Part shown: one piece after another, positions 7,516 to 47,620 of the stretch
How positions within the stretch are numbered: position 1 is the stretch's first letter
Layout: each line of letters starts with the position of its first letter
DNA from: a virus
Virus record (IMG/VR): IMGVR_UViG_3300045988_126619
Coordinates: 32,001 to 96,000 of that record
Direction: 5' to 3' (one strand)
DNA length: 64,000 nucleotides
Notes under the pieces: generated by a model
The model's input: the letters and a program-made list of their open reading frames with translations, nothing else
Told to the model about the DNA's origin: nothing
The model's database searches: none
Translations under genes and position numbers: made by a program

Positions 7516-7702
7516 TTCTTTTCCTCTTTTCTATATAAATTTTTTGTGGGATTTATATAGATTCATATAAATCCTTATGACAGGAGCAAAACCCCACATA
7601 TTCTACTCTCTGTCAATGTCTAAGAATAGAACAGTTTTACTGCTCTCATAAAGATTTATATTGTTTATTTTGTGTTTGTATTGAATACTCTATTGTAAAT
7701 TA

Positions 7703-11469: not shown

Positions 11470-11544
11470 TGGCAGGTGGACTAGGAATCGAACCTAGACA
11501 AACAATTTTGGAGATTGTCATTCTAGCCATTAAATTACCCACCC
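11470..11544 (-). tRNA. tRNA-Trp (anticodon CCA), CCA encoded
   Basis: Cloverleaf by eye: acceptor GGGTGGG/TCCACCT, anticodon arm ACAAT-CTCCAAA-ATTGT, T arm CTAGG-TTCGATT-CCTAG. Confidence 0.85.
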
Positions 11545-11564
11545 ACATAAAAGAAAGACGAAGA

Positions 11565-11801
11565 TTATTCCTCGTCTTCACTTTCTTCTTCTACTTTAGC
11601 TAAATCACTTTCACTAACTGGTGTGTCTGCCTCTGTTATTACAACCTTCACATAGGCATTATCTACCCCTGCCATATCACATAATTTAGATAACTTCACA
11701 GGCACAGCAAACTCTTCTGATTCTAATGTCATTTTTTCAGTATCTAAGAATCCACTCGCTACTATCCCTGCCCCTTTAATTGTGATTGCACTTTTTGCCA
11801 T
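11565..11801 (-). CDS. hypothetical protein, acidic C terminus
   Basis: ORF track. Motif variant ATAAAATAAACAATA (11819-11833) and GGGGA RBS lie upstream. Confidence 0.6.
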   Translation of the reverse strand: MAKSAITIKGAGIVASGFLDTEKMTLESEEFAVPVKLSKLCDMAGVDNAYVKVVITEADTPVSESDLAKVEEESEDEE

Positions 11802-11842
11802 ATTTAATTGTCCCCTTTTATTGTTTATTTTATTTACAAAAA

Positions 11843-13297
11843 TTATAATTCTATTGTGAAATCTAATTCTGAAACAAAAACCTTTGTAGTTCTATTATTT
11901 TCAGATAACATATCTTCTAATTTTGCTTTTAATTCTTCTTTTGCTTCATCTTCACCGTGCATCAAAACTACTTTATTACAATTGCATTGTTTAATATAGT
12001 TTATCAAATCTGTTTGGCTTGCATGAGAACTAAAAGTATTAAATCTTCTAATATTACAATGTTTGATTAATATATCTTTTTTATCAAATTCAACCTTATC
12101 AAGTGTTTCATCTAATATTTGCCCACCTATACAATTAGGAGAACAATAACCACAAAATAATATACTAGAATTAGTTTGTCCTAATAATCTATGAGCATGA
12201 AGTGTACTTCTTCCTCCACTAATCATCCCGCTACTAGATAGTATTACTGCTTGCTGTTTTTTACTCATGAAAGCGATACTAGCATCATAACTATCTATAA
12301 ATTTAAAACATTCCCAATTAATTACTTGTTTCCAATATTCTAATTCTTCACCTTCTAAAATAGAGAATAATGCTTTATTTATTTTACATCCCAAATTTGT
12401 ATCAATAACAATTGGTATTTCTCTATTCCAACTATCTTTAAATGTATCATATAGATAACACATTATATTTTGAAGTCTGTGTTGAGCGAATACTGGAATT
12501 AATACAGAACCATTTCTGTCTAACGTTTGAATGATTTCTTTTTTAAATTCTTCACGTTCTCTTATACAGTCCTGTTTAGTGAAGTTTCTATCACCTTTAC
12601 CATAAGTAGATTCTAAAAATACAACATCTGCTTTAGCTACATTAATAGTAGGTTTAACAAAATAATTAAATTGGAAATTATCAGTATTACCTAAATCTCC
12701 CGAAAACAATATCTTTTTAACAGTATTTGTTCCATATTTTTTAATATATAAAACCAACTGTGTTGCTCCCATCATATGGCTATTATCTACATATTGAAAA
12801 GAAACATATTCGTCAACTTTAATTATTTCATTCATAGAAACTTCTTCTATTTTATCTAATACTTTCCACATATCTTGAGTTGTATATAGTGGTTTACATT
12901 TCTTTCCTGTTTGTTTTAAATATTTACAATCATCTTCATGTATTTTTGTTCCATCTTTCAACATTACTGGTGCTATAGTTTTATTTGCATTATTCATAAA
13001 TATTTTTCCTGCAAATTCTTTTACATTTAAATAAGGTAATCCTCCAACATGGTCTTGGTGATTATGTGTTACAAAAACATATTCAGCATATTTAATTGGT
13101 ATGTTTTCAAACATCTTTTTATTGTCCATATATTCATCCCATTTAGAACCACCTTGACAAGTTCCTAAATCTACTAATAAATGTTTTCTACCTTCTTGTG
13201 TCATGTAAGACACCATTGTACATGAACCTGTTACTTGGTGACTTTGTGAGCCACACGTAATACATATGATTTTATTATCTTTCCTCTTTTTACCCAT
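11843..13297 (-). CDS. MBL-fold beta-CASP nuclease (RNase J / CPSF / Artemis-like)
   Basis: HNHQDHVGG (HxHxDH) in the N-terminal third. 484 aa, matching the beta-CASP architecture. Confidence 0.75.
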   Translation of the reverse strand: MGKKRKDNKIICITCGSQSHQVTGSCTMVSYMTQEGRKHLLVDLGTCQGGSKWDEYMDNKKMFENIPIKYAEYVFVTHNHQDHVGGLPYLNVKEFAGKIFMNNANKTIAPVMLKDGTKIHEDDCKYLKQTGKKCKPLYTTQDMWKVLDKIEEVSMNEIIKVDEYVSFQYVDNSHMMGATQLVLYIKKYGTNTVKKILFSGDLGNTDNFQFNYFVKPTINVAKADVVFLESTYGKGDRNFTKQDCIREREEFKKEIIQTLDRNGSVLIPVFAQHRLQNIMCYLYDTFKDSWNREIPIVIDTNLGCKINKALFSILEGEELEYWKQVINWECFKFIDSYDASIAFMSKKQQAVILSSSGMISGGRSTLHAHRLLGQTNSSILFCGYCSPNCIGGQILDETLDKVEFDKKDILIKHCNIRRFNTFSSHASQTDLINYIKQCNCNKVVLMHGEDEAKEELKAKLEDMLSENNRTTKVFVSELDFTIEL

Positions 13298-13380
13298 AAC
13301 AAAAATTCCTCCACACTCTCCTTAATAGTAAATAGGAATCTTTGTTTTAGATAAAAGTTTCTCTATTTATCTATTAATAA

Positions 13381-13408
13381 ATAAAAAGGGTAGTCTTATC
13401 AACTACCC
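13381..13408 (-). terminator. rho-independent terminator
   Basis: GGGTAGT-7-ACTACCC followed by a T-run on the minus strand, just after the HU-like gene. Confidence 0.6.
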
Positions 13409-13424
13409 TAATTTAAACAATAAA

Positions 13425-13730
13425 CTATCTGTTTACTGCTGATGTTTTCTTTATCTTTACAACTTCCTTTGCAGGTGCTGTATGTGCAGGATATGTTACT
13501 CCATTTAATGTTCTTTCTGGAACTTCCTTTTCATCTTGCATTACTTTTTCTACTCTGATATAAGAACCTAATTTAATTCCTTCGTCTACTCCTAGTCTAT
13601 CTATTACTGCATCTACAACTACATCAAAATTAGCAACAAAATCTTCTGCTGATTTCTTTGTTTTTAGTTCTAATGCTTCCTTTACTACGTCTACTAATAC
13701 TTCTTTCTTTAATAACTCTACCTTTGCCAT
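13425..13730 (-). CDS. HU/IHF-family DNA-binding protein
   Basis: About 100 aa. The helix-helix-beta-arm layout is colinear with bacterial HU, with a KK..A...V..F start and an arm with P. Confidence 0.7.
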   Translation of the reverse strand: MAKVELLKKEVLVDVVKEALELKTKKSAEDFVANFDVVVDAVIDRLGVDEGIKLGSYIRVEKVMQDEKEVPERTLNGVTYPAHTAPAKEVVKIKKTSAVNR

Positions 13731-13783
13731 AATTCTTTTTCTCCTTTTCGTTTCTTAGATTTTTTATTATTGTTTATTTTATT

Positions 13784-13826
13784 TCGGTGTCACAGGAATT
13801 GAACCCATGTACGTGCCTACACACCG
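13784..13826 (-). ncRNA. tRNA-like minihelix (acceptor stem + T arm only)
   Basis: CGGTGTG-11 nt-ATGGG-TTCAATT-CCTGT-GACACCG-A. No D or anticodon arm. Confidence 0.4.
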
Positions 13827-13881
13827 ATGTTTCCTTTATTTATAAAAAAACAAAGGAATAAATACATGAACTTTAACACGT

Positions 13882-13954
13882 TGGAAATTATAGGACTTGA
13901 ACCTACATCTCTCCGACTACTACGGAGTGCTTTCACCAGTTAAACTAAACTTCC
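13882..13954 (-). tRNA. tRNA with anticodon GUA (Tyr-like) and atypical loop
   Basis: Full cloverleaf: GGAAGTT/AATTTCC, D arm GTTT..AAGC, anticodon arm CTCCG-TAGTAGT-CGGAG, T arm GTAGG-TTCAAGT-CCTAT. A at position 33, short variable arm. Confidence 0.65.
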
Positions 13955-14040
13955 ATATAAATCCTATTTCTTTTTCGTCTGTGTGAAATAGGTAAATGTC
14001 ACCAGTATACTATAATATATTATCAAGGAGGTGTTTATTA

Positions 14041-14092
14041 GGGAAATCAAGGAATCGAACCTCTTTTAATGTTTAACCATAAACAATTTCCC
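14041..14092 (-). ncRNA. D-arm-less tRNA-like element (pseudo-tRNA?)
   Basis: GGGAAAT / TGTTT-ATGGTTA-AAACA / TTAAA / AGAGG-TTCGATT-CCTTG / ATTTCCC. 52 nt. Confidence 0.4.
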
Positions 14093-14128
14093 ATGTTAAA
14101 AGATAAGAAATTAATCTTACCTTAATAT

Positions 14129-14203
14129 TGGCGAGGATAGGTGGAAGTCGAACCACCGTTCACAGGTTAACAGCCTGTTGTTCTACCATTGGACTATATC
14201 CTC
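14129..14203 (-). tRNA. tRNA-Asn (GUU), CCA encoded
   Basis: GAGGATA/TATCCTC acceptor, ACAGG-CTGTTAA-CCTGT, GGTGG-TTCGACT-TCCACC. Confidence 0.9.
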
Positions 14204-15111
14204 ATATTATTATCTTTGAAGGCTTTTAGATTCTATCCTTCTTCTTGACTTTCAGAAGACTTACTGTCTATCTCCCTTATCCACTAACTCATGCTAGTAT
14301 CAAGAAATGCCTGCTATTTTATATACCGTTAGCTTTTACGGTCTACTAATATACTACTCTACAGTTCGCATTATACTTGCCTTGCGAGCAATTAAGGATT
14401 GGCTAAATCCAAATACGCTGTTCCTTATAAAGTAATTAAGTCCTTGCGAGAACTCCATTACACTTTGTTACATCTCTGCCAAAGTATTAAGACACTTTCG
14501 TATATTAGGAAGAAGAATTTTCGCTTTAGTTATTTGTATTTCAAATAAAATATGATATCCTCAATCATCACTTAAATCTGCTATATTCTTCTTAACTTTT
14601 CCAAACAGAAGTCACATCTTCTTAGTTGTTTCCTTGCCTTTTGAGCAAAGCTATACAACAGCGACTTCGATGCTTTCACTCAATTTATAAGTTACTAACG
14701 GTTCTATAAGATACTTTAGGATACTCCCTATTTTTCTTATACAACTGGTTATCGCACTTGTGTAAATTTCACTCGTACTATTTAACCTTACACTTTAGAT
14801 TTTCCATTTCACTAGTTTAGCGTGAACTATCCAATTGCTAGTTGGAAGATTTCATTCTTTGGTTATTCCATTACTCTCTTGTCATTCCTAGCTTATAGGA
14901 CTTTACCATATTGCTGACTATATTTTCACTTAACCAATATGATAAACATTTAAATCTTGTGTATTGCTTGAATTGACCATAAATGGCGAATGGTTGTTAG
15001 CCACCCTTTACATATATTACTATATGCTATCTGTGTCAAGCCACAATACGCACCTATATTAGTGTACCAGTTACTTTTATTTTAAAGAGTTAAAGTAACA
15101 AACTTTCTTCT
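14204..15111 (-). ncRNA. candidate very large structured ncRNA (GOLLD/ROOL-like context)
   Basis: 908 nt with no ORF of 60 aa or more on either strand. Abutted by tRNA-Glu and tRNA-Asn on the same strand. Less AT-rich than its surroundings. Local hairpins and GNRA-type loops are present. Confidence 0.5.
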
Positions 15112-15186
15112 TGGTACTCCATAGCAGAATTGAACTGCTGTCTTCACCGTGAAAGGGTGATGGCTTAACCACTTGCCTAATGGAGC
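15112..15186 (-). tRNA. tRNA-Glu (UUC), CCA encoded
   Basis: GCTCCAT/ATGGAGT, TCACC-CTTTCAC-GGTGA, GCAG-TTCAATT-CTGC. Confidence 0.9.
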
Positions 15187-15202
15187 ATATTAAAAGATTT
15201 TA

Positions 15203-15276
15203 TGGAGCAGTAATCGAGAATCGAACTCGAAACTTCGGGTCGGAAGCACGACATTTTACCATTAAACTATTACTGC
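15203..15276 (-). tRNA. tRNA-Gly (UCC), CCA encoded
   Basis: GCAGTAA/TTACTGC, anticodon loop CTTCCGA, TCGAG-TTCGATT-CTCGA. Confidence 0.85.
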
Positions 15277-15320
15277 TCGTTTTATCTTTCGTTATTATTT
15301 TTCTGTTTCTCTTTCGTTCT

Positions 15321-15413
15321 TGGCGGAGAATGTAGGATTCGAACCTACGATACCCTATTTAAGAGTATGACAGATTAGCAATCTGCTGTCTTAAACCACT
15401 CGACCAATTCTCC
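15321..15413 (-). tRNA. tRNA-Ser (GCU), class II long variable arm, CCA encoded
   Basis: GGAGAAT/ATTCTCC, GCAGA-TTGCTAA-TCTGT, long variable arm, GTAGG-TTCGAAT-CCTAC. Confidence 0.9.
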
Positions 15414-20744: not shown

Positions 20745-20950
20745 CTACTCGAAATATGGACAAATATACCCATATTGAGATTTTTTACTGTTTCTTCGTA
20801 TCTCATTTTGTTCTATAGAACTACTTTGATTTGATATAATACTCCACAGTCGTAAATTCCCGACTAGCCATCGGTACATATCTATAATCACTTATTTTAT
20901 GCTATATTATAGATTTTTGCATCTCTCAAATTAAGACTTGCATTATAATC
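20745..20950 (-). ncRNA. candidate TnpB omega (re)RNA
   Basis: GC-richer structured stretch spanning the tnpB 3' end and downstream. It has CCGA-TGGCTAG-TCGG and GTCG-GGAATTTA-CGAC hairpins and the palindrome GTTCTATAGAAC. Boundaries are approximate. Confidence 0.4.
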
Positions 20951-22102
20951 TCTATCCTCAACGTACCCACATTCACATTTGTATATCCTATCACTAAGTT
21001 TTAAATCTTTCTTTATAGAACCACATTCATGACATAGTTTACTTGAAGGATAAAATCTATCAACAATTCTTAATTCAATTCCTAAAGCATTACATTTATT
21101 TGTTAACTTAGTTCTAAATTCATAAAACTTTTGTTGTGCTACTGCTTTAGATAAATGCTTATTCTTCATCATTCCTTTTACATTTAAATCTTCTATTGTA
21201 ACATAAGATGGTTTGTTTCTTATCACATCAGCTACAACTTTATTTATGTAATCAGTTCTTATATTTGTAAGTCTTTGGTGAAGTATTTGTACCTTAACTA
21301 TTTGTTTATGTATATTTTGTCTAGTAGCAACTCCTTTCTCTTTTTTATTTCTTATTTTTAAACTTTCATATTTCCTTGAGAGCTTTTTTTGTTCTCTTAA
21401 TAATTTCTTTTCTAATCTTTTAACTCTTTGAGTTTTATTTATATTTTTGTAATTTATTTTATTACTACAAATAGCAAAATCTTTAAGACCTAAATCAATA
21501 CCTACACCACAAGTATATTGCTTATTATCTATTGTTGGATTAACGTCAATAACTACTGACACATAATATCTATTAGCTTTTTTAGATACAGTTCCGCTAA
21601 CAACTTTTGCACTAACTGGAATATACCCATATTCTTTTAACCTTACATTCTTTAAAGTAGGTATCATTATTCTATGTCTGTCTACTTTCCAATCGCCTTT
21701 ATTATTTTTAGGAAAGTATATTTTAACATCAGATTTATTTTTCTTTTTAAATCTAGGAAATTTAGATTGACCTTTGAAGAATCTTTTGTATGCAGTTTCA
21801 GCATTTTGAATAGCTTTCTTTCTAGCTTTAGAACCACAATTATTTATCCATGTATATTCTTCTAAAACTTTAACTTCATTATTTATATATTTGTCAAAAT
21901 CATTAGCTGACATAAACGCTTGTTTTTTATCAATACAACCATCTTTGAATTGGTTATATAATTCATTATTTTTAGCCAAATATTCATTATACAACCATCT
22001 ACAAACTCCGATACTTTGATTAATCTTTTGTATCTGTTTTTGTGTTGGTTTTATTTCTACTTTGTAAGCTTTTAATCGCTTATCATTTATTCTGTGTTTC
22101 AT
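20897..22102 (-). CDS. tnpB: TnpB RNA-guided endonuclease (IS605 OrfB family)
   Basis: RuvC triad context GIDLGLKDF, IEDLNVKGM, DRDYNASLNL. Zinc finger CHECGS...CECG. Start set to ATG 22102 (AGAGGTG RBS). Confidence 0.85.
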   Translation of the reverse strand: MKHRINDKRLKAYKVEIKPTQKQIQKINQSIGVCRWLYNEYLAKNNELYNQFKDGCIDKKQAFMSANDFDKYINNEVKVLEEYTWINNCGSKARKKAIQNAETAYKRFFKGQSKFPRFKKKNKSDVKIYFPKNNKGDWKVDRHRIMIPTLKNVRLKEYGYIPVSAKVVSGTVSKKANRYYVSVVIDVNPTIDNKQYTCGVGIDLGLKDFAICSNKINYKNINKTQRVKRLEKKLLREQKKLSRKYESLKIRNKKEKGVATRQNIHKQIVKVQILHQRLTNIRTDYINKVVADVIRNKPSYVTIEDLNVKGMMKNKHLSKAVAQQKFYEFRTKLTNKCNALGIELRIVDRFYPSSKLCHECGSIKKDLKLSDRIYKCECGYVEDRDYNASLNLRDAKIYNIA

Positions 22103-22263
22103 ATTAATATCACCTCTTGAGTATATATTAACACATTCAAACACATTTGTCAACATTTTTATTAACTATTTTATCTCTCCTTTATAATTAATTTTATGTG
22201 GCTAGATATAATTTCTAACCACATTTATATCTTATCATTTATTTTATGTTCTATATACATTAT

Positions 22264-28871: not shown

Positions 28872-29621
28872 CTATAATAAATCAGATTCTAATTGTGATA
28901 AATTATAGCCACCAAATGTATTAGAAGTAATGTATTCGTTACTAGTTTCTACCAATTTCTCTGTAATAATTTTGTTCACGTATTGAACAGCACCTAAAAT
29001 ATTGATGTTTTGATGTGAATAATTGATTTTTGACATAACCATAGATTGAATAGCAAACTCATGAACACCTCTAAGGGCAAATAATTCACGTGCAATTTGT
29101 TTTAATTCAGATTTAGACATAGTAGTATTACCTTTGATAGTTTTAAATGACTTTGCATAAGATTTAATTATGTCAACCACATTAGTATCAGTATTAGTAT
29201 TTAAATTAGTATTTCTAATTTCTTCTTTGTCAGAAACCGAATTAGCTTCAACATCACTATTTTCAACAGTTTGTGGATAATTATTTTCATCCACTTTTTC
29301 ATTCATTTTTTCATCCACAGTTGGGTTAAAAAAATATTTATTAAGTCTACCAACTTTTTTAATTATTAGTATTCCTAAATCTACTAATTCATTACAAAGA
29401 TTTATAAAATGAGTTCTGCCCATTTGTATGCCCCTGCCTTTCCAAGCAGAATATCTAGCATATAGTCTGTCTAGGCTCATTCTAATAGAATTATCATCGT
29501 TAAGATTTTGTAGAGCATAAGCTAACACAGAAAGGCATTTAGCACGTTTATTGTCATTGAATACGTTATAGTTAATAATATCTAATTGTTTTTTTGGTAT
29601 TTGTATTTTGTAATTGTTCAT
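28872..29621 (-). CDS. replisome organiser / DnaD-domain replication protein
   Basis: N-terminal winged-helix-like region and C-terminal DnaD-like region (LKQIARELFALRG...AVQYVNKII). Long leader, with DnaA boxes upstream. Confidence 0.5.
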   Translation of the reverse strand: MNNYKIQIPKKQLDIINYNVFNDNKRAKCLSVLAYALQNLNDDNSIRMSLDRLYARYSAWKGRGIQMGRTHFINLCNELVDLGILIIKKVGRLNKYFFNPTVDEKMNEKVDENNYPQTVENSDVEANSVSDKEEIRNTNLNTNTDTNVVDIIKSYAKSFKTIKGNTTMSKSELKQIARELFALRGVHEFAIQSMVMSKINYSHQNINILGAVQYVNKIITEKLVETSNEYITSNTFGGYNLSQLESDLL

Positions 29622-29689
29622 AATAAAAATCTCCCCTATTCTTTAAAAATATAGCGGAGAAAAATCTTCTATATATATGTTTTTTTTGC

Positions 29690-29717
29690 TTGACTTATAG
29701 TGTATATGTGATATAAT
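29690..29717 (+). promoter_or_regulatory. plus-strand promoter inside the replication-gene leader
   Basis: TTGACT-16-TATAAT with TGn extended -10. Confidence 0.5.
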
Positions 29718-29723
29718 AAGTAC

Positions 29724-29828
29724 ATAAACAAGAAAAAATATATTAAAAATCTCTTCTGTTTTAGAAGAATTTTTCTCTGTGACCTATACGTTTATTTGAT
29801 TGGTAGTCTGCAAAACGTATAGGTTTTT
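29724..29828 (+). ncRNA. candidate about 105-nt countertranscript (antisense to the replication-gene leader)
   Basis: Runs from the promoter above to terminator CCTATACGTTT-19-AAACGTATAGG plus TTTTT (29783-29828). No ORF. Confidence 0.4.
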
Positions 29829-29854
29829 GCTATATTCAATTAATTTATATATTT

Positions 29855-29883
29855 ATTATACAAAAATGTGGATAACTTTGCAA
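29855..29883 (-). promoter_or_regulatory. promoter of the replisome-organiser gene
   Basis: TTGCAA-17-TATAAT on the minus strand. The spacer contains a DnaA box. Confidence 0.5.
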
Positions 29884-29910
29884 GAAAAATTTTAGTTATC
29901 CACATTTTTT
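29867..29910. terminator. bidirectional hairpin terminator made of two inverted perfect DnaA boxes
   Basis: TGTGGATAACT-16-AGTTATCCACA with T-runs on both strands. TTATCCACA sits at 29896-29904 and its complement at 29867-29875. Confidence 0.6.
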
Positions 29911-29911
29911 A

Positions 29912-30595
29912 TTATTTTCTATGAAATAGCCTGTTGAAAAAGCTATTTTTTTGTTTAGTTTCTTCAAATTCTTTTTTATGTTCAGCTAACATACTTCTCA
30001 TATCTGAAACGATTTTGGCTGAATCTCTTTCCTGTTTATCTATTTTATCTTGCGTTACTGCAATATTCTCTGATATATCTTGCAATTGTGAATATAATTC
30101 AGTTTTGAAATTATTAATAGATTCTTCTACATTCTCTTGAACCACTATAGATGTCTTTTCATCTATCTGTCTTAACAATTCTCCTGCAAACTCTTGCTGT
30201 TGAGCAATCATTAAATGAATTAGGTTCTGCATCATTTTTTGATTAGATTGAGTAAGAATTGTTGTTATATACTCCATGTCAAAAGTATCTTTTCCAATCA
30301 ATTCTTTGTCATTATTTGCAAATCCATTTCTTTTTATAAGTTCTTTTATTTGAGAGATAGAGAAATTCCGTTCTCTTCTCAATTTTTTTATTACTTCAAA
30401 TTGTTCTACACTTGTTTCTGTATATTGCCACCTGCCATTTACCTTTTTGATGTACAGAAATTCTTGAAAATCTTCTGCCCATGTTCTAATTGTATGAGGT
30501 GGTTCACCTATTCTTTTGCCAATTTGGACTGCATTAACTATACATTCTTCATCTTTTGGAACAGCTTTAAATTCCACATCATTATAATTATCCAT
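29912..30595 (-). CDS. MerR-family HTH + coiled-coil protein (TubY-like modulator candidate)
   Basis: MerR-type HTH VQIGKRIGEPPHTIRTWAE, then a long coiled coil and a basic amphipathic tail. Divergent from tubR. Confidence 0.55.
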   Translation of the reverse strand: MDNYNDVEFKAVPKDEECIVNAVQIGKRIGEPPHTIRTWAEDFQEFLYIKKVNGRWQYTETSVEQFEVIKKLRRERNFSISQIKELIKRNGFANNDKELIGKDTFDMEYITTILTQSNQKMMQNLIHLMIAQQQEFAGELLRQIDEKTSIVVQENVEESINNFKTELYSQLQDISENIAVTQDKIDKQERDSAKIVSDMRSMLAEHKKEFEETKQKNSFFNRLFHRK

Positions 30596-30706
30596 AATAA
30601 CACCTTCCTTTTACCTTAGTTTAGTATATAATATTAAATATGTAAAGTTAATTTAGTTTAATTTATTGCATACTTTACTTTACTTTACTCATAAATATAT
30701 CACATA

Positions 30707-30783
30707 TTTATCATAGCTTTATCATATCTTTATCGTAATTTTATCAAGCTTTTATCATAACTTTATCACATTTATGTCAAATA
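30707..30783 (+). repeat. partition centromere (tubC/tubS-like)
   Basis: Six in-phase 11-bp repeats TTTATCA starting at 30707, 30718, 30729, 30740, 30751 and 30762, plus a degenerate seventh. (TACTT)x4 lies at 30671-30690. Confidence 0.65.
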
Positions 30784-30870: not shown

Positions 30871-31164
30871 ATGATTGATACCGATAAAGATGTGATAAAA
30901 ACATTGAATAGTAATGATTATTTTATATTAAGCAAGATATACTATCCAGAAAAAAAGTTAGGTAACTGCGAAGGAAGGGGCATAACCAAAGATTTAATAG
31001 CTGAAAGAAGCAAATTAAGCATTAGCACAATTAACAGGTCTATACCTAAATTATTAAAAGCAGGACTTATAAAAGAAGCTGTAAAGCAAATAAATAAGAA
31101 GGCTTATTATATTAGTGCAAAAGGTCAACAAAGATTAAAAGAATTAAGAGAAAGAGAGTGGTAA
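30871..31164 (+). CDS. tubR: TubR-like winged-helix centromere-binding protein
   Basis: 97 aa with HTH AERSKLSISTINRSIPKLLKAGLI. Sits immediately upstream of tubZ and downstream of the repeats. Confidence 0.7.
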   Translation: MIDTDKDVIKTLNSNDYFILSKIYYPEKKLGNCEGRGITKDLIAERSKLSISTINRSIPKLLKAGLIKEAVKQINKKAYYISAKGQQRLKELREREW

Positions 31165-31167
31165 TAA

Positions 31168-32256
31168 ATGGATAAGTCAAGCATATTAGTGACAGGATTA
31201 GGACAATGTGGCGGAAGATTAGCAGACACAATGAAGGAGTTTAATGGGAGATATACTACTAATTATATAAATAGTTCATTAGGTGATATAAAAGGTCTTA
31301 AACACGCTGATTTGGACAATAATGTACTAATATATAGTGGAACAGATGGAAGTGGTAGAATAAGAGAAAATGGAAAGAAATTTTTTGAAACAGATGCAAT
31401 AAGAGTAGCTGATTTTATAGGAAAATTCAGACAGTTCAAACATACTGTAGTATGTACTAGTTTAGATGGAGGTACTGGTTCGGGTACTTTAATACATTAT
31501 GTAAAATTATTAAAAAGATTAATGCCTACAATGACAATAACAGTAGTTGGTGTTTTACCAAAATTAGCATCAGAACCATTAAATTTAGATAACGCTAAGA
31601 AATGCCTTAAAGAATATGAAAAGTATATAAAAGATTTAGTAAACGGACTAATATTAATAAATAATGAAAAATGTGATATGAACTATGAACAAATTAATTT
31701 AGAAGCTGTTTCTATGATAGATGCGTTTTTTGGAATGGTAGGGCATCATGAAGATGGCAGTATAGATAATGGAAATCTAAATAATGTAATAACAGCAGGA
31801 GGATATATCAGTTTATTTAAACTACCAAATGTTGAGGATGTATCAGTAAGAGATGCCATGAAACAAGCTAAAGAGAAAAGTATATTTGCATTACCAGAAA
31901 ATTTTAGATGTTTATTTGGTGCTGTAAATGTAGTAGAAGGAATGTATAATAAAGATTCAATATGTGAAAAAATAAAAGCTAAAAAGACTACTTATTCAAC
32001 ATATAATAAGAAGGGATTAAATCTAGTAGCATTAAGTGGCTGTAGTATGCCTAATGATGATATAGATGATTTAATAGACGAATTAAAGACAAGACAAGAA
32101 GATGATGATGATTACGAAATAGAAGGTTTCAATATTTCAGATGATGAAGAAGATACAGTTGATACAAAACCTAAAAAACAAGAAAAAACAAATGTATTCA
32201 TGGAAGAAGAAGATATTGATGCCATTTTAAGTGATGCAGATTTCTTTAAATTTTAG
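31168..32256 (+). CDS. tubZ: TubZ tubulin/FtsZ-like GTPase
   Basis: GLGQCGGRLAD and tubulin signature DGGTGSG. Acidic C-terminal tail. Confidence 0.9.
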   Translation: MDKSSILVTGLGQCGGRLADTMKEFNGRYTTNYINSSLGDIKGLKHADLDNNVLIYSGTDGSGRIRENGKKFFETDAIRVADFIGKFRQFKHTVVCTSLDGGTGSGTLIHYVKLLKRLMPTMTITVVGVLPKLASEPLNLDNAKKCLKEYEKYIKDLVNGLILINNEKCDMNYEQINLEAVSMIDAFFGMVGHHEDGSIDNGNLNNVITAGGYISLFKLPNVEDVSVRDAMKQAKEKSIFALPENFRCLFGAVNVVEGMYNKDSICEKIKAKKTTYSTYNKKGLNLVALSGCSMPNDDIDDLIDELKTRQEDDDDYEIEGFNISDDEEDTVDTKPKKQEKTNVFMEEEDIDAILSDADFFKF

Positions 32257-41255: not shown

Positions 41256-41317
41256 AACTCATAAAACAAGTTTTATTCGTTATAGTTTGTTTTTTATTAT
41301 CTATACCTACAACTATA

Positions 41318-41512
41318 TACCCCCCCCATATATGAAGTATATCCGCCCATATAAGCTTCTTATACCCCTCCCCTTATAACTTTACTATTTATATTTGCAG
41401 GGTGCTTAGAACAGCTAATAGGGTTATTATTTTGTTATATGTTTACGACTGCAATATACCCCCTCCCTACCTATATATAATTATTGGCATTAATACGTTA
41501 AGTACCCGCCCT
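41318..41512. repeat. cluster of C-tract boxes (TATA-CCC[CG]CCC-TA)
   Basis: C8 at 41320-41327, CCGCCC at 41343-41348, CCCCTCCCC at 41365-41373, CCCCCTCCC at 41459-41467, CCCGCCC at 41505-41511. One more at 41776-41780. Confidence 0.6.
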
Positions 41513-41514
41513 AC

Positions 41515-41543
41515 TTGACAACAATTAAAAATAGTATTATAAT
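41515..41543 (+). promoter_or_regulatory. consensus sigmaA promoter in the non-coding region
   Basis: TTGACA-17-TATAAT bracketed by inverted CCCTACTT / AAGTAGGG. The only downstream candidate is a 29-codon ORF at 41636-41725. Confidence 0.45.
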
Positions 41544-42165
41544 AGTAATAAAGAAGTAGGGTAGAATAATAGATATTTACTCTATGAAATGGCAATAAGT
41601 TCTTTGAAAAGTAAATAAAAAGGGTGTTTTTGAAAATGGATATATCCGATGATTTACATATGTTTATGAGTGATGTTATGAGAAAAGTGTTACTCGTCAA
41701 AAAATACAAAATGTGTGTAGATTAAGGAGAGGATGGCTTTGTTCACGAATTGAACACAGTAAACGTTTACAAGTACCCCCTAGTATACGTTTTCATACGA
41801 TATATAACAGAGTATAAGTATACATTATACGTTGTTACCTATGTACTAGGCTTTACCAGTAATAAGGGAAAATATTTTCATAAATTGAACACTCATTAAT
41901 GTTATGTATATATTTGTTACGTACCTATACACACACACACACACCAACATAACAAAATGTTAATATCAAGTACAGTATTAGTAAACATAAAGTTTAATAT
42001 TAATGAACTATTACCACCATAAAGTTTTGTATTACTATACTTTGTGTTCACTATTACTATACTTGATTTATATATAAGATAAGATTTGAACGTTTGTTAT
42101 TTGTATAGTTGTTCAAGTTTCAATAGTTCAAATCTTATTTTCTCTTATATTTGATATCATGTTAT

Positions 42166-42650
42166 ATGGTATTATATACTACATTAACAAGTTTGACATA
42201 CAATGATAGAGTTGTTCTAGCAAAAGAGTTATCGAATACCACTTTAAGAGGTTTGACAAGTTATACATTATGTGTTCTAAGTTATATAGTAATGAATACT
42301 ACATAATAAGATTTGACAAACGCTATAACATTTGTTCTAAGATAAGAGTTATTGAATACCATATAAGAAGGCTTGACAAACTATGTTTGATTTGTTCTAA
42401 ATTTTTGGATACTATTTTGAGTGATTTGTCAAGAGTTAATTTATAAGAGGTATTTAATACTGCATTATAAGGTTTGACATAATAATAATTTTATATCTAG
42501 TTTTTTAGAACGACTGATTTTGTTTTGTCAAGTATAATTTTATATATGGTATTGGATACTGTTTAATAAGGTTTGACACATGATGATTTATATGCTCTAA
42601 GAATTTAGATACTATTTTTATAGTTTTGTCAATGGTTAATTTTAGGAGAT
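42166..42650. repeat. array of bipartite TTGACA-N16-TTCTAA elements (direct and face-to-face)
   Basis: Forward TTGACA at 42193, 42253, 42313 and 42373 (exact 60-bp period), then 42474 and 42573. Reverse units lie at 42405-32, 42505-31 and 42605-32. One more reverse unit is at 43029-43055. Confidence 0.75.
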
Positions 42651-43411
42651 ATAGTGTATTTAATATGTATACATATGTATGTGTATGAAGTACACCAATC
42701 TATACACGTACAATATAACGACAATTTAGATTTGAACGTGAATTTAAGAACGAAAATAACCTTGTAATTAATCATTTATTTTGTGTTTGAATTTACATTT
42801 TTGTGAGAATTGAAGATAGCTGAAACGTAGTCATATCAATGGTTTGCAGGCTTACAAATATTCCTAATTAATGATAATATATATCATTTACATAAGAATA
42901 TAGTATAGTAAAGGTTTACAACGCATTTATTACGTTATTTTACGACTGTTTTATAACTGGTATTTTAAGAGATATTAAGAACACGAACGTTTAACGTATT
43001 GTGGTGTGAAACATTCAGATAACATATATTAGAACAAGTATTTTGATTTTGTCAAGTTTTTAGCGGAATAGAGTAGTATTGTACAATATATGAACAAGTA
43101 TAGTATTAGTAAACAAAAGTTTATAAATAGTAAACAATTATCAGAATATTATGAGCGTGTATAATAACGATAATGGAACGATAGAACGGTTTTATTTTTC
43201 AAGGTATTAGTTTACCTGCGATTTTTGGGCGTGAATCTAAACGTTTACATGGGCATTAGAATTGATTGACCAGTCAACATATTGAGTAGTTTTGTAAACG
43301 TTTACAGAGTATGAGTGTTCAACAAGTGAACTATTGTTCTGAATAGTGTATAATTAAATAATATGCGAACCTTATCAAGTGCAAAAAAATAACTAGCGTA
43401 TAGAACGTTAG

Positions 43412-43621
43412 TTATTGATATATAGATAAAGCTATTAATATTAATATACATAGAGTTGAAAACATTTGTAAGTTGCGTATAATACGTTGAATACTGTTTA
43501 ATGGTTTGAAATCAAGTGACACGTTATAAGAAGTTTTGTTATTATTAGTTATCTTTTTGCTGAATGTTAATGTAGTATTGAATACCATGTTAAAAGTTCT
43601 ATTATAAGTTGTTGTTATCAT
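43412..43621 (-). CDS. hypothetical protein with C-terminal TM segment
   Basis: ORF track. AGAGGTG RBS and motif variant 43636-43650 lie directly upstream. Confidence 0.5.
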   Translation of the reverse strand: MITTTYNRTFNMVFNTTLTFSKKITNNNKTSYNVSLDFKPLNSIQRIIRNLQMFSTLCILILIALSIYQ

Positions 43622-43651
43622 ATCTTTACACCTCTTATTATTTATTTTATG

Positions 43652-43768
43652 CTATATAAATTTATAAGTATAAACTTGTTCCTTAATATCTTTAATACCT
43701 AGAATGAATGATAGTTGTTTTTTGTCTACCACCTTTTGAGTTCCATCTTTAAAAAATATCTTACACAT
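43652..43768 (-). CDS. small protein (38 aa)
   Basis: ATG after AAAGGTGGTAATAA RBS and motif variant 43798-43812. Sequence MCKIFFKDGTQKVVDKKQLSFILGIKDIKEQVYTYKFI. Confidence 0.4.
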   Translation of the reverse strand: MCKIFFKDGTQKVVDKKQLSFILGIKDIKEQVYTYKFI

Positions 43769-43818
43769 AATTTTATTACCACCTTTACATTTTTTGTTAT
43801 CATTTATCTTATGTACTC

Positions 43819-43847
43819 ATTATATAATAAATTTTGGATATAGTCAA
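43819..43847 (-). promoter_or_regulatory. sigmaA-type promoter (divergent pair, leftward)
   Basis: TTGACT-17-TATAAT, then 6 nt, then CATAAGATAAATGATAA. Confidence 0.55.
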
Positions 43848-46470: not shown

Positions 46471-46538
46471 AATACTTGTAAGGAACAACAGAAACGGAAC
46501 GCCTTGAAAATATCAAGCAAACAGTAACAAAATTGTTC

Positions 46539-46567
46539 TTGACAAAGCACAAAATAAATGATATGAT
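46539..46567 (+). promoter_or_regulatory. second tandem promoter
   Basis: TTGACA-17-TATGAT, spacer AAGCACAAAATAAATGA. Confidence 0.55.
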
Positions 46568-47131: not shown

Positions 47132-47620
47132 ATGAAAACAAAATTAGTAGTAAATGGATTAACTTTAAATATCGAACTAAAAACAAAGGTTTGCAGAGAT
47201 TATTCAGATTTCCAAGAAAAGGAAATGATTTGTTTGTCAATAAGTGGAAGCAAAAAAGGATATGGAAGAGGTCAATGTTTGGGCTATATTAAACAAAGAA
47301 TTTTAATGGGTTCATTTAATCCAAGACTTAAAAAGGCTCAAACTAATGAAGTATTAAATATTATAAACATATGGGAAAAGTATCATTTGAACGATATGAA
47401 AGCGGGAACTATAAACCAAGAAAAGTTCATCAAAGAAAACTATAAAGGTGCTTATGATTATAACAAAGTTTGTGAATTATTAAAAGAAAACAATCTTTTA
47501 GAAGATGTTTACATGAATTGTCAAAATTACAAATATGGTACATCTTGGTTATGTGAAGAAATACCAACAAGCGTTATAGATAGCTTAATGAACTCTATAG
47601 AGAATTTACAAAACATGTAA
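47132..47620 (+). CDS. hypothetical protein, paralog of 49667..50350
   Basis: VLNIINIWEKYHLNDM aligns with VLNIISIWEEYHLKSI. Both start MKT. AAAGGTGGTAATA RBS. Confidence 0.6.
   Translation: MKTKLVVNGLTLNIELKTKVCRDYSDFQEKEMICLSISGSKKGYGRGQCLGYIKQRILMGSFNPRLKKAQTNEVLNIINIWEKYHLNDMKAGTINQEKFIKENYKGAYDYNKVCELLKENNLLEDVYMNCQNYKYGTSWLCEEIPTSVIDSLMNSIENLQNM

Follow-up and report, generated by a model that had tools for sequence, protein, structure and literature searches.

A putative cis-regulatory repeat array with promoter-mimicking grammar in a Clostridium butyricum phage/plasmid-like element

The DNA analyzed here is a 64-kb stretch (hereafter, the window; positions 32,001 to 96,000 of IMG/VR record IMGVR_UViG_3300045988_126619) of a Clostridium butyricum phage/plasmid-like element of ~155-160 kb that encodes TubZ and TubR; the gene and domain negatives reported below cover this window. 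Ten oriented bipartite units, located at 42193-43055 and sharing the description TTGACA, 16 or 17 unconserved bases and TC(T/C)A(A/G), appear to constitute a cis-regulatory repeat array with a putative function. The grammar of the array is unusual, in that sites with the shape of a promoter and the wrong -10 box are tiled with two dyads. Comparison with related contigs indicates that the array is under selection and specific to one lineage. We tentatively favor reading it as an accessory operator/promoter-type regulatory lattice that forms the core of a larger non-coding module, for which we infer both the binder and the output.

Anatomy of the array

A sequence-only reading had described the region as a series of TTGACA-N16-TTCTAA elements. 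All the hexamers that it listed were found in place, and the array itself was confirmed (Table 1). The 16-nt distance holds in F1 to F4, but shrinks to 15 nt in R2 and R4, while the equivalent position is occupied by (T)ATCCAA in R1 and by (T)ATCTAA in R3. The best common description of the unit is TTGACA-N16/17-TCTAA. Exact instances of this pattern occur eight times in the 64 kb, against an expectation of 0.27 from shuffled sequences and with none of 100 shuffles reaching eight, and seven of these eight instances fall within 42253-43055. A single exact TTGACA-N16-TCTAA match lies outside the module, at 47498-47524 on the minus strand, antisense within an open reading frame (ORF; 47132-47620), and is conserved in relatives; this conservation is probably due to coding constraint, and the match is hence likely to be a chance one. 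The first four forward units repeat with an exact 60-bp period. Tandem Repeats Finder reported periods of 60 bp (3.5 copies) and 120 bp (1.8 copies) for 42161-42400, and a repeat search of the face-to-face part of the array returned 99/200-bp repeats.

The -35-like hexamer is exactly TTGACA in 10 of the 10 window units. The spacer measures 16 or 17 bp depending on the unit, and a TG dinucleotide stands in register at -15/-14 in six of them (Table 1). The hexamer at the -10 position, however, is of the TCTAAN type rather than the TATAAT-like type of sigmaA, which requires A at -11 and T at -7: every window unit carries C at "-11", and T at -7 is present only in R4. In agreement with the earlier suggestion that these are not productive sigmaA promoters, A at -11 is never present in the array, as opposed to at least 13 canonical promoters elsewhere in the window, and a promoter scanner demanding the A2 and T6 of the -10 box does not call the units. 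Judged by eye, the units do not match the Spo0A 0A-box, LexA, SinR (GTTCTYT) or sigmaH/E/F/G/K sites, nor the sigmaI (ACCCCC...CGAA) or MerR-type 19-bp-spacer arrangements.

From F4 onward, forward units face reverse units, and the face-to-face palindromic layout noted earlier was borne out, with facing units forming the palindrome TCTAA-N4-TTAGA. The "-10"-like boxes of facing units are separated by only 2-4 bp, so that two polymerases could not share one pair simultaneously; the expected collision of convergent pairs corresponds to a real overlap at the "-10" boxes. The hexamer centers within a pair do fall at 0, +22, +32 and +54, as had been computed from the letters. Their placement on one helical face does not extend to the array as a whole, since 60 bp and 99-100 bp correspond to 5.7 and 9.5 helical turns and successive units are therefore out of helical phase.

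Two dyads are interwoven with the units. Dyad O is a 13-bp palindrome, GGTATTnRATACY, that precedes each forward TTGACA by 6 bp, with its center ~53 bp upstream of the would-be start of the unit, and is present in six copies in the array (Table 1). The conserved ATAC box previously seen upstream of the forward units is indeed there, but is merely the right half of this palindrome. Dyad C, TCTAA-N4-TTAGA, arises where forward and reverse units face each other and covers both would-be -10/start regions; the center of the F4/R1 pair is a perfect 14-mer palindrome, TCTAAAATTTTAGA, in the related contigs L025, L002 and L033. The facing part of the array is consequently a regular lattice in which O, a rightward TTGACA, C, a leftward TGTCAA and the next O follow one another. 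An O-type palindrome is also found beyond the module, within the 5' part of a 69-aa minus-strand ORF, and in the related scaffold L014 this site is a perfect 27-bp palindrome (13-1-13), TTAACATGGTATTGAATACCATGTTAA. A further O is located at 7677, at approximately +8 to +20 relative to the canonical promoter that serves the Rha/KilAC antirepressor gene. Its position by an antirepressor promoter hints at a repressor operator, although the hit alone is not statistically compelling.

Conservation and copy-number variation among relatives

Searches of INPHARED (GenBank phages) and PLSDB with megablast and blastn returned no relative, and only CRISPR spacers matched. Scans of IMG/VR, GTDB genomes and JGI metagenomes for the exact two-unit pattern yielded only chance matches, in coding or unrelated DNA, and the array is hence confined to one lineage in those collections. 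This lineage came to light when the proteins of the flanking ORFs (104 aa and 69 aa) were looked up in Logan and ENA assemblies. The contigs of relatives reach 155-162 kb (ERZ27258020 k141_586373; ERZ28575887 scaffold_124), and a protein of one relative is annotated as Clostridium butyricum at NCBI. The array was found in L002/L008, L003, L009, L025-L031, L033 and L032, counted as eight related C. butyricum-type contigs. Synteny based on the helicase was tried and set aside, because the homologues (75%, 61% and 51% identical, in L004, L005 and L001) belong to other elements without the array.

The number of units varies through the gain or loss of whole units, the main array comprising 4 to 9 units plus the solitary one (0, 4, 7, 8 or 9 across relatives). 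Four direct units, three facing pairs and one solitary unit are found in the window, L025, L026, L028 and L033, and L031 has five direct units with the same complement of pairs and solitary unit. L002 carries four direct units, two pairs and one solitary unit, F5 and R2 having been deleted as a single 123-bp block, and the most diverged relative, L032, retains one direct unit, two pairs and the solitary unit. An apparent hypervariability of spacers between the window and L002 was traced to L002 having kept a different unit, equivalent to the fourth of L031, after unequal recombination.

Across these eight relatives, 47 distinct unit variants were collected. TTGACA is present in 100% of them and TCTAA in ~90%, while their spacers are unrelated; C stands at "-11" in all 47, with no reversion to TATAA. 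When six units of the window were compared with their L032 orthologues, differences amounted to 2 of 66 positions in the boxes as against 34 of 99 in the spacers (Fisher p=5e-7). The observation that half-sites are conserved and spacers are not, made originally on the window, therefore extends to both paralogues and orthologues, and indicates that the units are selected protein-recognition sites. In every relative the bipartite motif is restricted to the module.

The module and its non-coding surroundings

The array lies in a 1226-bp non-coding module that is present in eight relatives. The array was thus conserved in the alignment of relatives that had been proposed as a check, with the exception of L014, which lacks the entire module but has kept the flanks on either side with high identity; its junction, ...CAACATAAC|GATAGAACGG..., bears no mark other than an AAC microhomology. 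The absence of the module from L014, together with the variable number of units, favors an accessory, not essential, role.

The 2.2-kb stretch that contains the array had been considered devoid of credible genes, and gene callers leave it empty both in the window and in every relative. Short ORFs within the array (58 aa and 46 aa) are not conserved among relatives, which rules out a coding repeat protein, and an Rfam search of the region returned no RNA family at E <= 1. The gene-free stretch, and the array with it, lies between two converging transcription units, which start from promoters directed at the array (Table 1). That gene orientation switches at this point, as had been stated, does not hold: the main switch is at ~30.7 kb, and at 42 kb there is local convergence only, with plus-strand genes up to 41186, small minus-strand ORFs at 43412-43768 and plus-strand genes again from 44010. 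No intrinsic terminator was predicted in 41.0-44.2 kb. Hairpin 2 may act as terminator of the 41515 transcript, a role that we infer from its palindrome and T-rich tract. For hairpin 1, the fold z-scores are -6.2 and -7.3, one per strand.

F6 alone among the units precedes an ORF with a ribosome-binding site, AGGAGA-N6-GTG, at suitable distance (37 aa). Immediately to the right of the array, 42600-42840 is ~98% identical to L032 in spite of the divergence of the neighboring DNA; this segment holds that 37-aa ORF (42654-42767, plus strand) and a 48-aa ORF (42629-42775, minus strand), and could be a small gene or an RNA. Directly left of the module edge lies a (CA)n/CACC-type microsatellite (41929-41944) that differs in L002, L009, L014, L031 and L032, and several short-read contigs from other samples end at this tract (41914-41944).

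Several further motifs surround the module. A 12-bp palindrome, GTAAACGTTTAC, flanks it at 41759-41770 and 43294-43305 (perfect), with one-mismatch copies at 42908 and 43237; the GTATTAGTAAAC motifs in the bracketing repeats are akin to it, and together they look like an operator-like site family. Three C-rich boxes, ATATACCCCCYCCC (41315-41330, 41360-41375 and 41454-41469), lie upstream of the 41515 promoter in surroundings of 75% A+T and are kept in relatives, L032 having a C-rich equivalent; they were rejected as sigmaI-type promoters because no CGAA -10 follows downstream. A perfect LexA/Cheo-box-like dyad of the form GAAC-N4-GTTC, GAACTATTGTTC, occupies 43328-43339 and closely precedes a TATAAT; its counterpart in L025 and L032 is GAACGGTTGTTC, and L031 lacks it through a deletion. 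The small minus-strand ORFs encode 69 aa (43412-43621, with a hydrophobic C-terminus) and 38 aa (43652-43768). In relatives, an in-frame insertion of 3-4 codons lengthens the former to 72-73 aa, and L014 and L034 carry an additional 187-aa gene between the two.

Table 1. Coordinates of the array units, the dyads and associated features in the window.
Feature	Position	Strand	Description
Unit F1	42193-42221	+	TTGACA-N17-TCTAGC; TG at -15/-14
Unit F2	42253-42281	+	TTGACA-N17-TCTAAG; TG
Unit F3	42313-42341	+	TTGACA-N17-TCTAAG; TG
Unit F4	42373-42401	+	TTGACA-N17-TCTAAA; TG; opposite R1
Unit R1	42404-42432	-	TTGACA-N17-TCCAAA (TCTAAA in relatives); TGTCAA at 42427
Unit F5	42474-42501	+	TTGACA-N16-TCTAGT; opposite R2
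Unit R2	42504-42531	-	TTGACA-N16-TCTAAA; TGTCAA at 42526
Unit F6	42573-42601	+	TTGACA-N17-TCTAAG; TG; opposite R3; pair center TCTAAGAATTTAGA
Unit R3	42604-42632	-	TTGACA-N17-TCTAAA; TGTCAA at 42627
Solitary unit R4	43028-43055	-	TTGACA-N16-TCTAAT; TG; TGTCAA at 43050; kept in all array-bearing relatives
O palindrome	42168-42180		GGTATTATATACT; upstream of F1
O palindrome	42228-42240		GTTATCGAATACC; upstream of F2
O palindrome	42288-42300		AGTAATGAATACT; upstream of F3
O palindrome	42348-42360		GTTATTGAATACC; upstream of F4
O palindrome	42449-42461		GGTATTTAATACT; between back-to-back R1 and F5; 0 mismatches
O palindrome	42548-42560		GGTATTGGATACT; between R2 and F6; 0 mismatches
O-type palindrome beyond module	43574-43586		Within 5' part of 69-aa minus-strand ORF
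Accessory non-coding module	41954-43179		1226 bp; holds array; present in 8 relatives, missing in L014
Hairpin 1	41965-42067		Long imperfect palindrome at module left end; inverted repeat, 45-nt arms, 78% complementary
Hairpin 2	42076-42141		Imperfect palindrome, then T-rich tract; inverted repeat and folding
Direct repeat bracketing module (~55 bp), left copy	41967-42021	+	Repeat search
Direct repeat bracketing module (~55 bp), right copy	43095-43148	+	Repeat search; also in inverted repeat
Canonical promoter directed at array	41515-41543	+	TTGACA-17-TATAAT; followed by 33-aa ORF 41624-41725
Near-canonical promoter directed at array	43819-43847	-	TTGACT-17-TATAAT; through 38-aa and 69-aa ORFs
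Protospacer	42175-42209	+	Overlaps F1
Protospacer	42632-42667	+	Array right edge
Protospacer	43144-43179	+
Protospacer	43621-43655	+
Protospacer	43803-43836	+
Protospacer	46516-46551	+
Stereotyped promoters	7731, 19896, 24171, 25364	-
Stereotyped promoters	35252, 37953, 43936, 46539, 47667, 48175, 52564, 55297	+

The host element

The window has a G+C content of 25%. TubR is encoded at 30871-31164 and TubZ at 31168-32256, and the TubZ protein is ~25% identical to the TubZ of c-st and other clostridial plasmids, which indicates that the element itself is new. Other products of the window include a MerR-type protein, helicases, FolD, the Rha/KilAC antirepressor, tRNAs and an MrpR-type recombinase. 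The MerR-family gene (29912-30595), which is TubY-like, lies divergently to the tubR/tubZ side. Six tRNA genes (Trp, Tyr, Asn, Glu, Gly and Ser), of the kind typical of a large phage, are clustered at 11470-15413 on the minus strand. In the 1-27 kb block there is one IS605 OrfB/TnpB-like protein (Pfam HTH_OrfB_IS605, OrfB_IS605, Cas12f1-like_TNB), and a RAGATH-18 RNA (71 bits; 20785-20850, minus strand) was identified directly 3' of a 419-aa ORF (20897-22156).

Candidates for the replication origin and the centromere are found away from the array. The GC-skew analysis suggested earlier for locating the origin did reveal a switch, but at ~30 kb and not at the array: gene orientation and GC skew switch globally at ~30.7 kb, and the cumulative GC-skew minimum is at ~30 kb. 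Perfect DnaA boxes occur at 29272-29280, 29867-29875 and 29896-29904, with further boxes at 29311 and 30588, and two of the perfect boxes form an inverted pair in the intergenic 29622-29911, beside the skew minimum and the orientation switch. The cluster at 29.3-29.9 kb is, on these grounds, the best candidate for a plasmid-type origin. Directly upstream of tubR, at 30682-30771, eight 11-bp tandem repeats of ACTTTATCATA are the probable tubC centromere.

At least twelve of the canonical TTGACA-N16-18-TAnAAT promoters found outside the array form a stereotyped family, TTGACA..AAATAAATGAT, with the pattern TTGACA-(n)-A(A/G)ATAAA(T/C)(G/A)AT-TAnAAT, often with a conserved upstream AAAACTTTATTAAAAGTG and with a small gene after each. 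The conserved spacer of this family suggests a shared operator. The array units are a class distinct from it.

CRISPR targeting by C. butyricum CBM588

The only database match to the region is a type I-B CRISPR array on the megaplasmid of C. butyricum CBM588 (NZ_CP132345.1, handled here as L024; 384.6-388.9 kb), which consists of 57 repeats of GATTAACAGTAACATTAGATGTATTTAAAT and 56 spacers beside cas5b-cas3-cas4-cas1b-cas2. Six of the 56 spacers match the window at 93-100% identity, all on the plus strand and with a 5'-TCA protospacer adjacent motif (once TTA). These matches identify C. butyricum as the host and show that the element is treated as an invader. The matching spacers are consecutive in the CBM588 array (7-9 and 41-43), and two of them are closer to the L002/L009 variant than to the window. 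Five of the six protospacers lie within 1.7 kb, in the non-coding region (Table 1). Primed adaptation is the simplest explanation for this cluster, although a true acquisition hot spot, arising for example from fork stalling at a protein-bound array, is also conceivable. The possibility that the array is itself a CRISPR array or a solitary-repeat RNA anti-CRISPR was rejected, as its best local alignment to the I-B repeat of C. butyricum has a score of 20, below the mean of 21.5 for other segments of the window.

Interpretation of the array

The units have the geometry of sigma-70-family recognition sites, with a perfect -35, a 16/17-bp spacer and TG in six units, and their -35 hexamer is identical to that of the canonical promoters of the element. 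The sequence-only reading gave too little weight to this geometry, on account of which RNA polymerase and sigma-like factors remain candidate readers. R4 (TCTAAT) is one C-to-A substitution away from a consensus promoter, yet no such change is seen, which points to positive, base-specific recognition and argues for TCTAA being a specifically recognized box, not simply a dead -10. Two short boxes set two turns apart, with a 1-bp tolerance in their spacing, are not what Rep-iteron or ParB/ParR/TubR targets look like. The view of the array as protein-binding sites rather than productive promoters is thus partly supported, and, among the three functions that had been offered for it (origin iterons, second centromere and immunity operator), the immunity or regulatory reading seems the most plausible and comes closest to what the evidence allows.

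The accessory operator/promoter-type lattice, which we regard as possible rather than probable, might operate as follows. A two-domain, sigma-type reader would dock on the bipartite sites; this reader could be the RNA polymerase holoenzyme, which would contact the -35 and the extended -10, or else a dedicated factor with matching geometry. Dyads O and C would be bound by at least one dimeric phage regulator, and the outcome would be a set of tightly controlled, mutually exclusive and mostly non-productive convergent promoter-like sites. Such a site bank could serve as an immunity-type operator region, as a factor sink or as a barrier between the converging transcription units (41515 rightward, 43847 leftward). 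Several considerations weigh against this proposal. Pfam, PHROGs and PDB sequence searches of the window and the array flanks revealed no sigma factor, XRE/CI-type repressor or Rep protein, and the flanking proteins, as candidate binders, had no match in any of the three. As a roadblock, a closed complex of RNA polymerase is weak, and ten sites per copy make a small sink. The invariant C is easier to reconcile with a dedicated factor than with sigmaA of the host, and docking of RNA polymerase may therefore be the wrong half of the proposal. The O site at 7677 is one of about four non-array matches (<=1 mismatch, 64 kb) and could have arisen by chance. The array-bearing relatives are close to one another (>=95% over most non-coding DNA), except for the partly diverged L032, which makes the comparative signal shallow, and the module-less L014 is a 4.1-kb metagenomic scaffold that may not stem from a viable element.

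A doubtful variant, to which we attach little probability, is that the units are evolved "non-melting promoters", in which the duplex-read determinants (-35, TG and T-12) have been kept and the flip-out base at -11 has become an invariant C. The -11 position would then have been co-opted into the palindrome of the regulator, and host polymerase or a sigma-like factor would be parked or exchanged on the lattice, which would act as a factor sink, as a transcription/replication barrier between converging units or as a switch released on departure of the regulator. To our knowledge, no non-melting-promoter lattice has been described as a defined genetic module.

Among the rival explanations, promoters for a non-housekeeping sigma factor deserve serious consideration even if we find them unlikely. 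The factor would be encoded by the phage outside the window, or be an ECF/group-5-like factor of the host, and would take TTGACA for its -35 and (G)TTCTAA/TCTAA for its -10. Convergent non-coding transcripts that overlap each other, such as antisense/dsRNA regulators, would then arise from the array, which would perhaps also express the small ORF at 42654-42767. A bipartite oriented site with a 16/17-bp spacer is a signature of sigma recognition, the -10-like box holds an invariant C, as ECF-type -10 elements typically do, and the ORF after F6 is suitably spaced. Clostridial phages and plasmids are also known to carry specialized sigma factors, such as botR on phage c-st (PMC4031146). Against this, no sigma-factor domain was detected in window ORFs of >=90 aa at E < 1e-4, nor in ORFs scanned singly, and the motif precedes no gene in the 64 kb, being found only in the gene-free module, whereas a promoter class is normally dispersed. 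The closeness of facing -10 boxes would moreover impose mutual exclusion on polymerases, no terminators are predicted around the array, and the resemblance to TcdR/BotR promoters is out of register (TTTACA-N17-GTTATA on both strands of c-st, TTGACA-N17-TCTAAN here). Iteron-like sites for replication or copy control, either an incA-type titration/handcuffing locus or a lytic origin of a plasmid prophage, are improbable. They would account for repeated sites in both orientations and in variable number, for a locus that is dispensable in one relative (L014), as P1 incA is, and for the plasmid-like character of the element (TubR, TubZ and an MrpR-type recombinase); the array is also flanked by large AT-rich palindromes, and a fork-stalling protein array could yield the cluster of protospacers. 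The protospacers, however, all lie on one strand and stem from two bursts (spacers 7-9 and 41-43), which primed adaptation explains equally well. In addition, no Rep-like gene is adjacent to the array or found elsewhere in the window, no DnaA box (<=1 mismatch) occurs in 41.2-44.0 kb, in contrast to the boxes at 29.3-29.9 kb with their skew switch, and the two 5-6-bp boxes with an unconserved spacer of 1-bp-variable length, in units 60 or 100 bp apart that are not helically phased, differ from the contiguous 17-22 bp of known iterons. The origin iterons suggested by the sequence-only reading are not supported.

The remaining alternatives appear far less likely. A second centromere, for TubR or another centromere-binding protein, would be in keeping with the direct and inverted arrangement of sites, which resembles some parC and parS clusters, and phage-plasmids can have dispersed centromeres, as N15 does. 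We nonetheless consider it very unlikely, and the earlier proposal to this effect was abandoned, given that the tubR-proximal motif ACTTTATCATA differs from the units and is absent from 42166-43055, that no par gene lies beside the array, that L014 is without the module and that centromere repeats are normally phased and contiguous. The array is accordingly disfavored, on the features of its sites and flanks, both as a replication origin and as the TubZRC centromere. Hardly any weight can be given to a packaging, terminus or injection repeat region (pac/cos accessory or injection-stop-type) at the edge of an early-gene block. The array does adjoin a run of small genes, each with a strong stereotyped promoter (44-56 kb), a layout that recalls the terminal early regions of large phages; CRISPR protospacers cluster at it, and one 155-kb scaffold terminates within the non-coding region. 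Yet no terminase was detected in the window, contig ends are scattered (41320, 41630, 41729, 41914, 41944, 43291, 43349 and 43405), two long contigs (82 kb and 162 kb) run through the region uninterrupted, and the spacer cluster is explained by priming. It is likewise hard to believe that the array is functionless and consists of decaying tandem duplicates of one promoter region kept alike by unequal crossing-over. The higher-order periodicity of 120 and 200 bp and the gain and loss of whole units among relatives are consistent with such a history, but recombinational homogenization would have kept the spacers too, and these are randomized while both boxes are invariant in paralogues and orthologues, including the diverged L032, and the "-11" C never mutates.

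The identity of the binder would provide a handle on the silencing and switching of these elements, and could reveal a new sigma/promoter specificity or a new use of promoter-like DNA, as a platform on which proteins dock. Little has been mapped of the immunity, copy-control and transcription programs of large clostridial plasmid prophages, among which are the carriers of botulinum toxin genes. The CRISPR match places the present element in C. butyricum, relatives of the probiotic strain CBM588 included.

Comparison with known systems

A formal parallel to an immunity-type operator region is offered by the C1 operators of P1. Both systems are set in a plasmid prophage and use asymmetric, oriented sites that occur singly and as face-to-face pairs (here 4-5 tandem units, 2-3 pairs and one solitary unit); in P1, the face-to-face pairs are the "bivalent" operators, which form an imperfect palindrome. 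The C1 consensus, ATTGCTCTAATAAATTT (22 operators; PMC8546580), and box C also share the core TTG(C/T)TCTAA(T), as in TTTGTTCTAATATAAG of L031 and L032. The P1 operators, however, are contiguous 17-mers dispersed over the genome on real promoters, whereas the array is bipartite, confined to one gene-free module and accompanied by palindrome O. A C1-like dispersal over functional promoters was not observed, the sole other match (47498) lying inside a coding gene, and no C1 homologue or other cognate repressor was recognized in the 64-kb window. Given the different host phylum, the sequence resemblance is most likely coincidental.

Iteron arrays such as P1 incC/incA and F ori2/incC have in common with the array many repeats in both orientations and in variable number, and such a control array can be dispensable. 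The array differs from them in its non-contiguous motif and variable spacer length, and in having no adjacent rep, DnaA boxes or DNA-unwinding element. With regard to tubC of TubZRC, the element does possess TubR, TubZ and short direct repeats upstream of tubR, but those ACTTTATCATA repeats are unrelated to the array and 11.5 kb away from it. P2/186-type face-to-face switches resemble the array in combining convergent promoter-like elements with an operator at the overlap in the control region of a temperate phage. The start sites of those switches are separated by 35-62 bp and drive real operons, whereas in the array the -10 boxes nearly touch, three pairs are accompanied by 4-5 tandem units and no genes lie downstream.

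The promoters read by group 5 sigma factors (TcdR, BotR and UviA) are likewise found on clostridial mobile elements, and their -35 is one base away from that of the array (TTTACA versus TTGACA), both having AGGTTT as upstream context and a downstream box that contains GTT. The ntnh and ha promoters of c-st have TTTACA as their -35 (PMC4031146), and in the c-st sequence both BotR promoters read TTTACA-N17-GTTATA. Membership in this class was rejected because the array has GTTCTA at N14/15, TCTAAN at N17 and an invariant G in TTGACA, and because no sigma gene is found in the window. With sigmaA promoters, the units share a perfect TTGACA, the 16/17-bp spacer, TG at -15/-14 and T at -12; they diverge at the -10 box, which is TAnAAT in the sigmaA promoters of the element and TCTAAN, with the invariant C at -11, in the array. 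Finally, "promoter islands" bind RNA polymerase and are transcriptionally poor (PMC3661553), and they share with the array a high density of promoter-like sites in horizontally mobile DNA without a product. The promoter islands of E. coli are irregular, overlapping and degenerate and form open complexes, whereas the array is a regular lattice built on one conserved motif.

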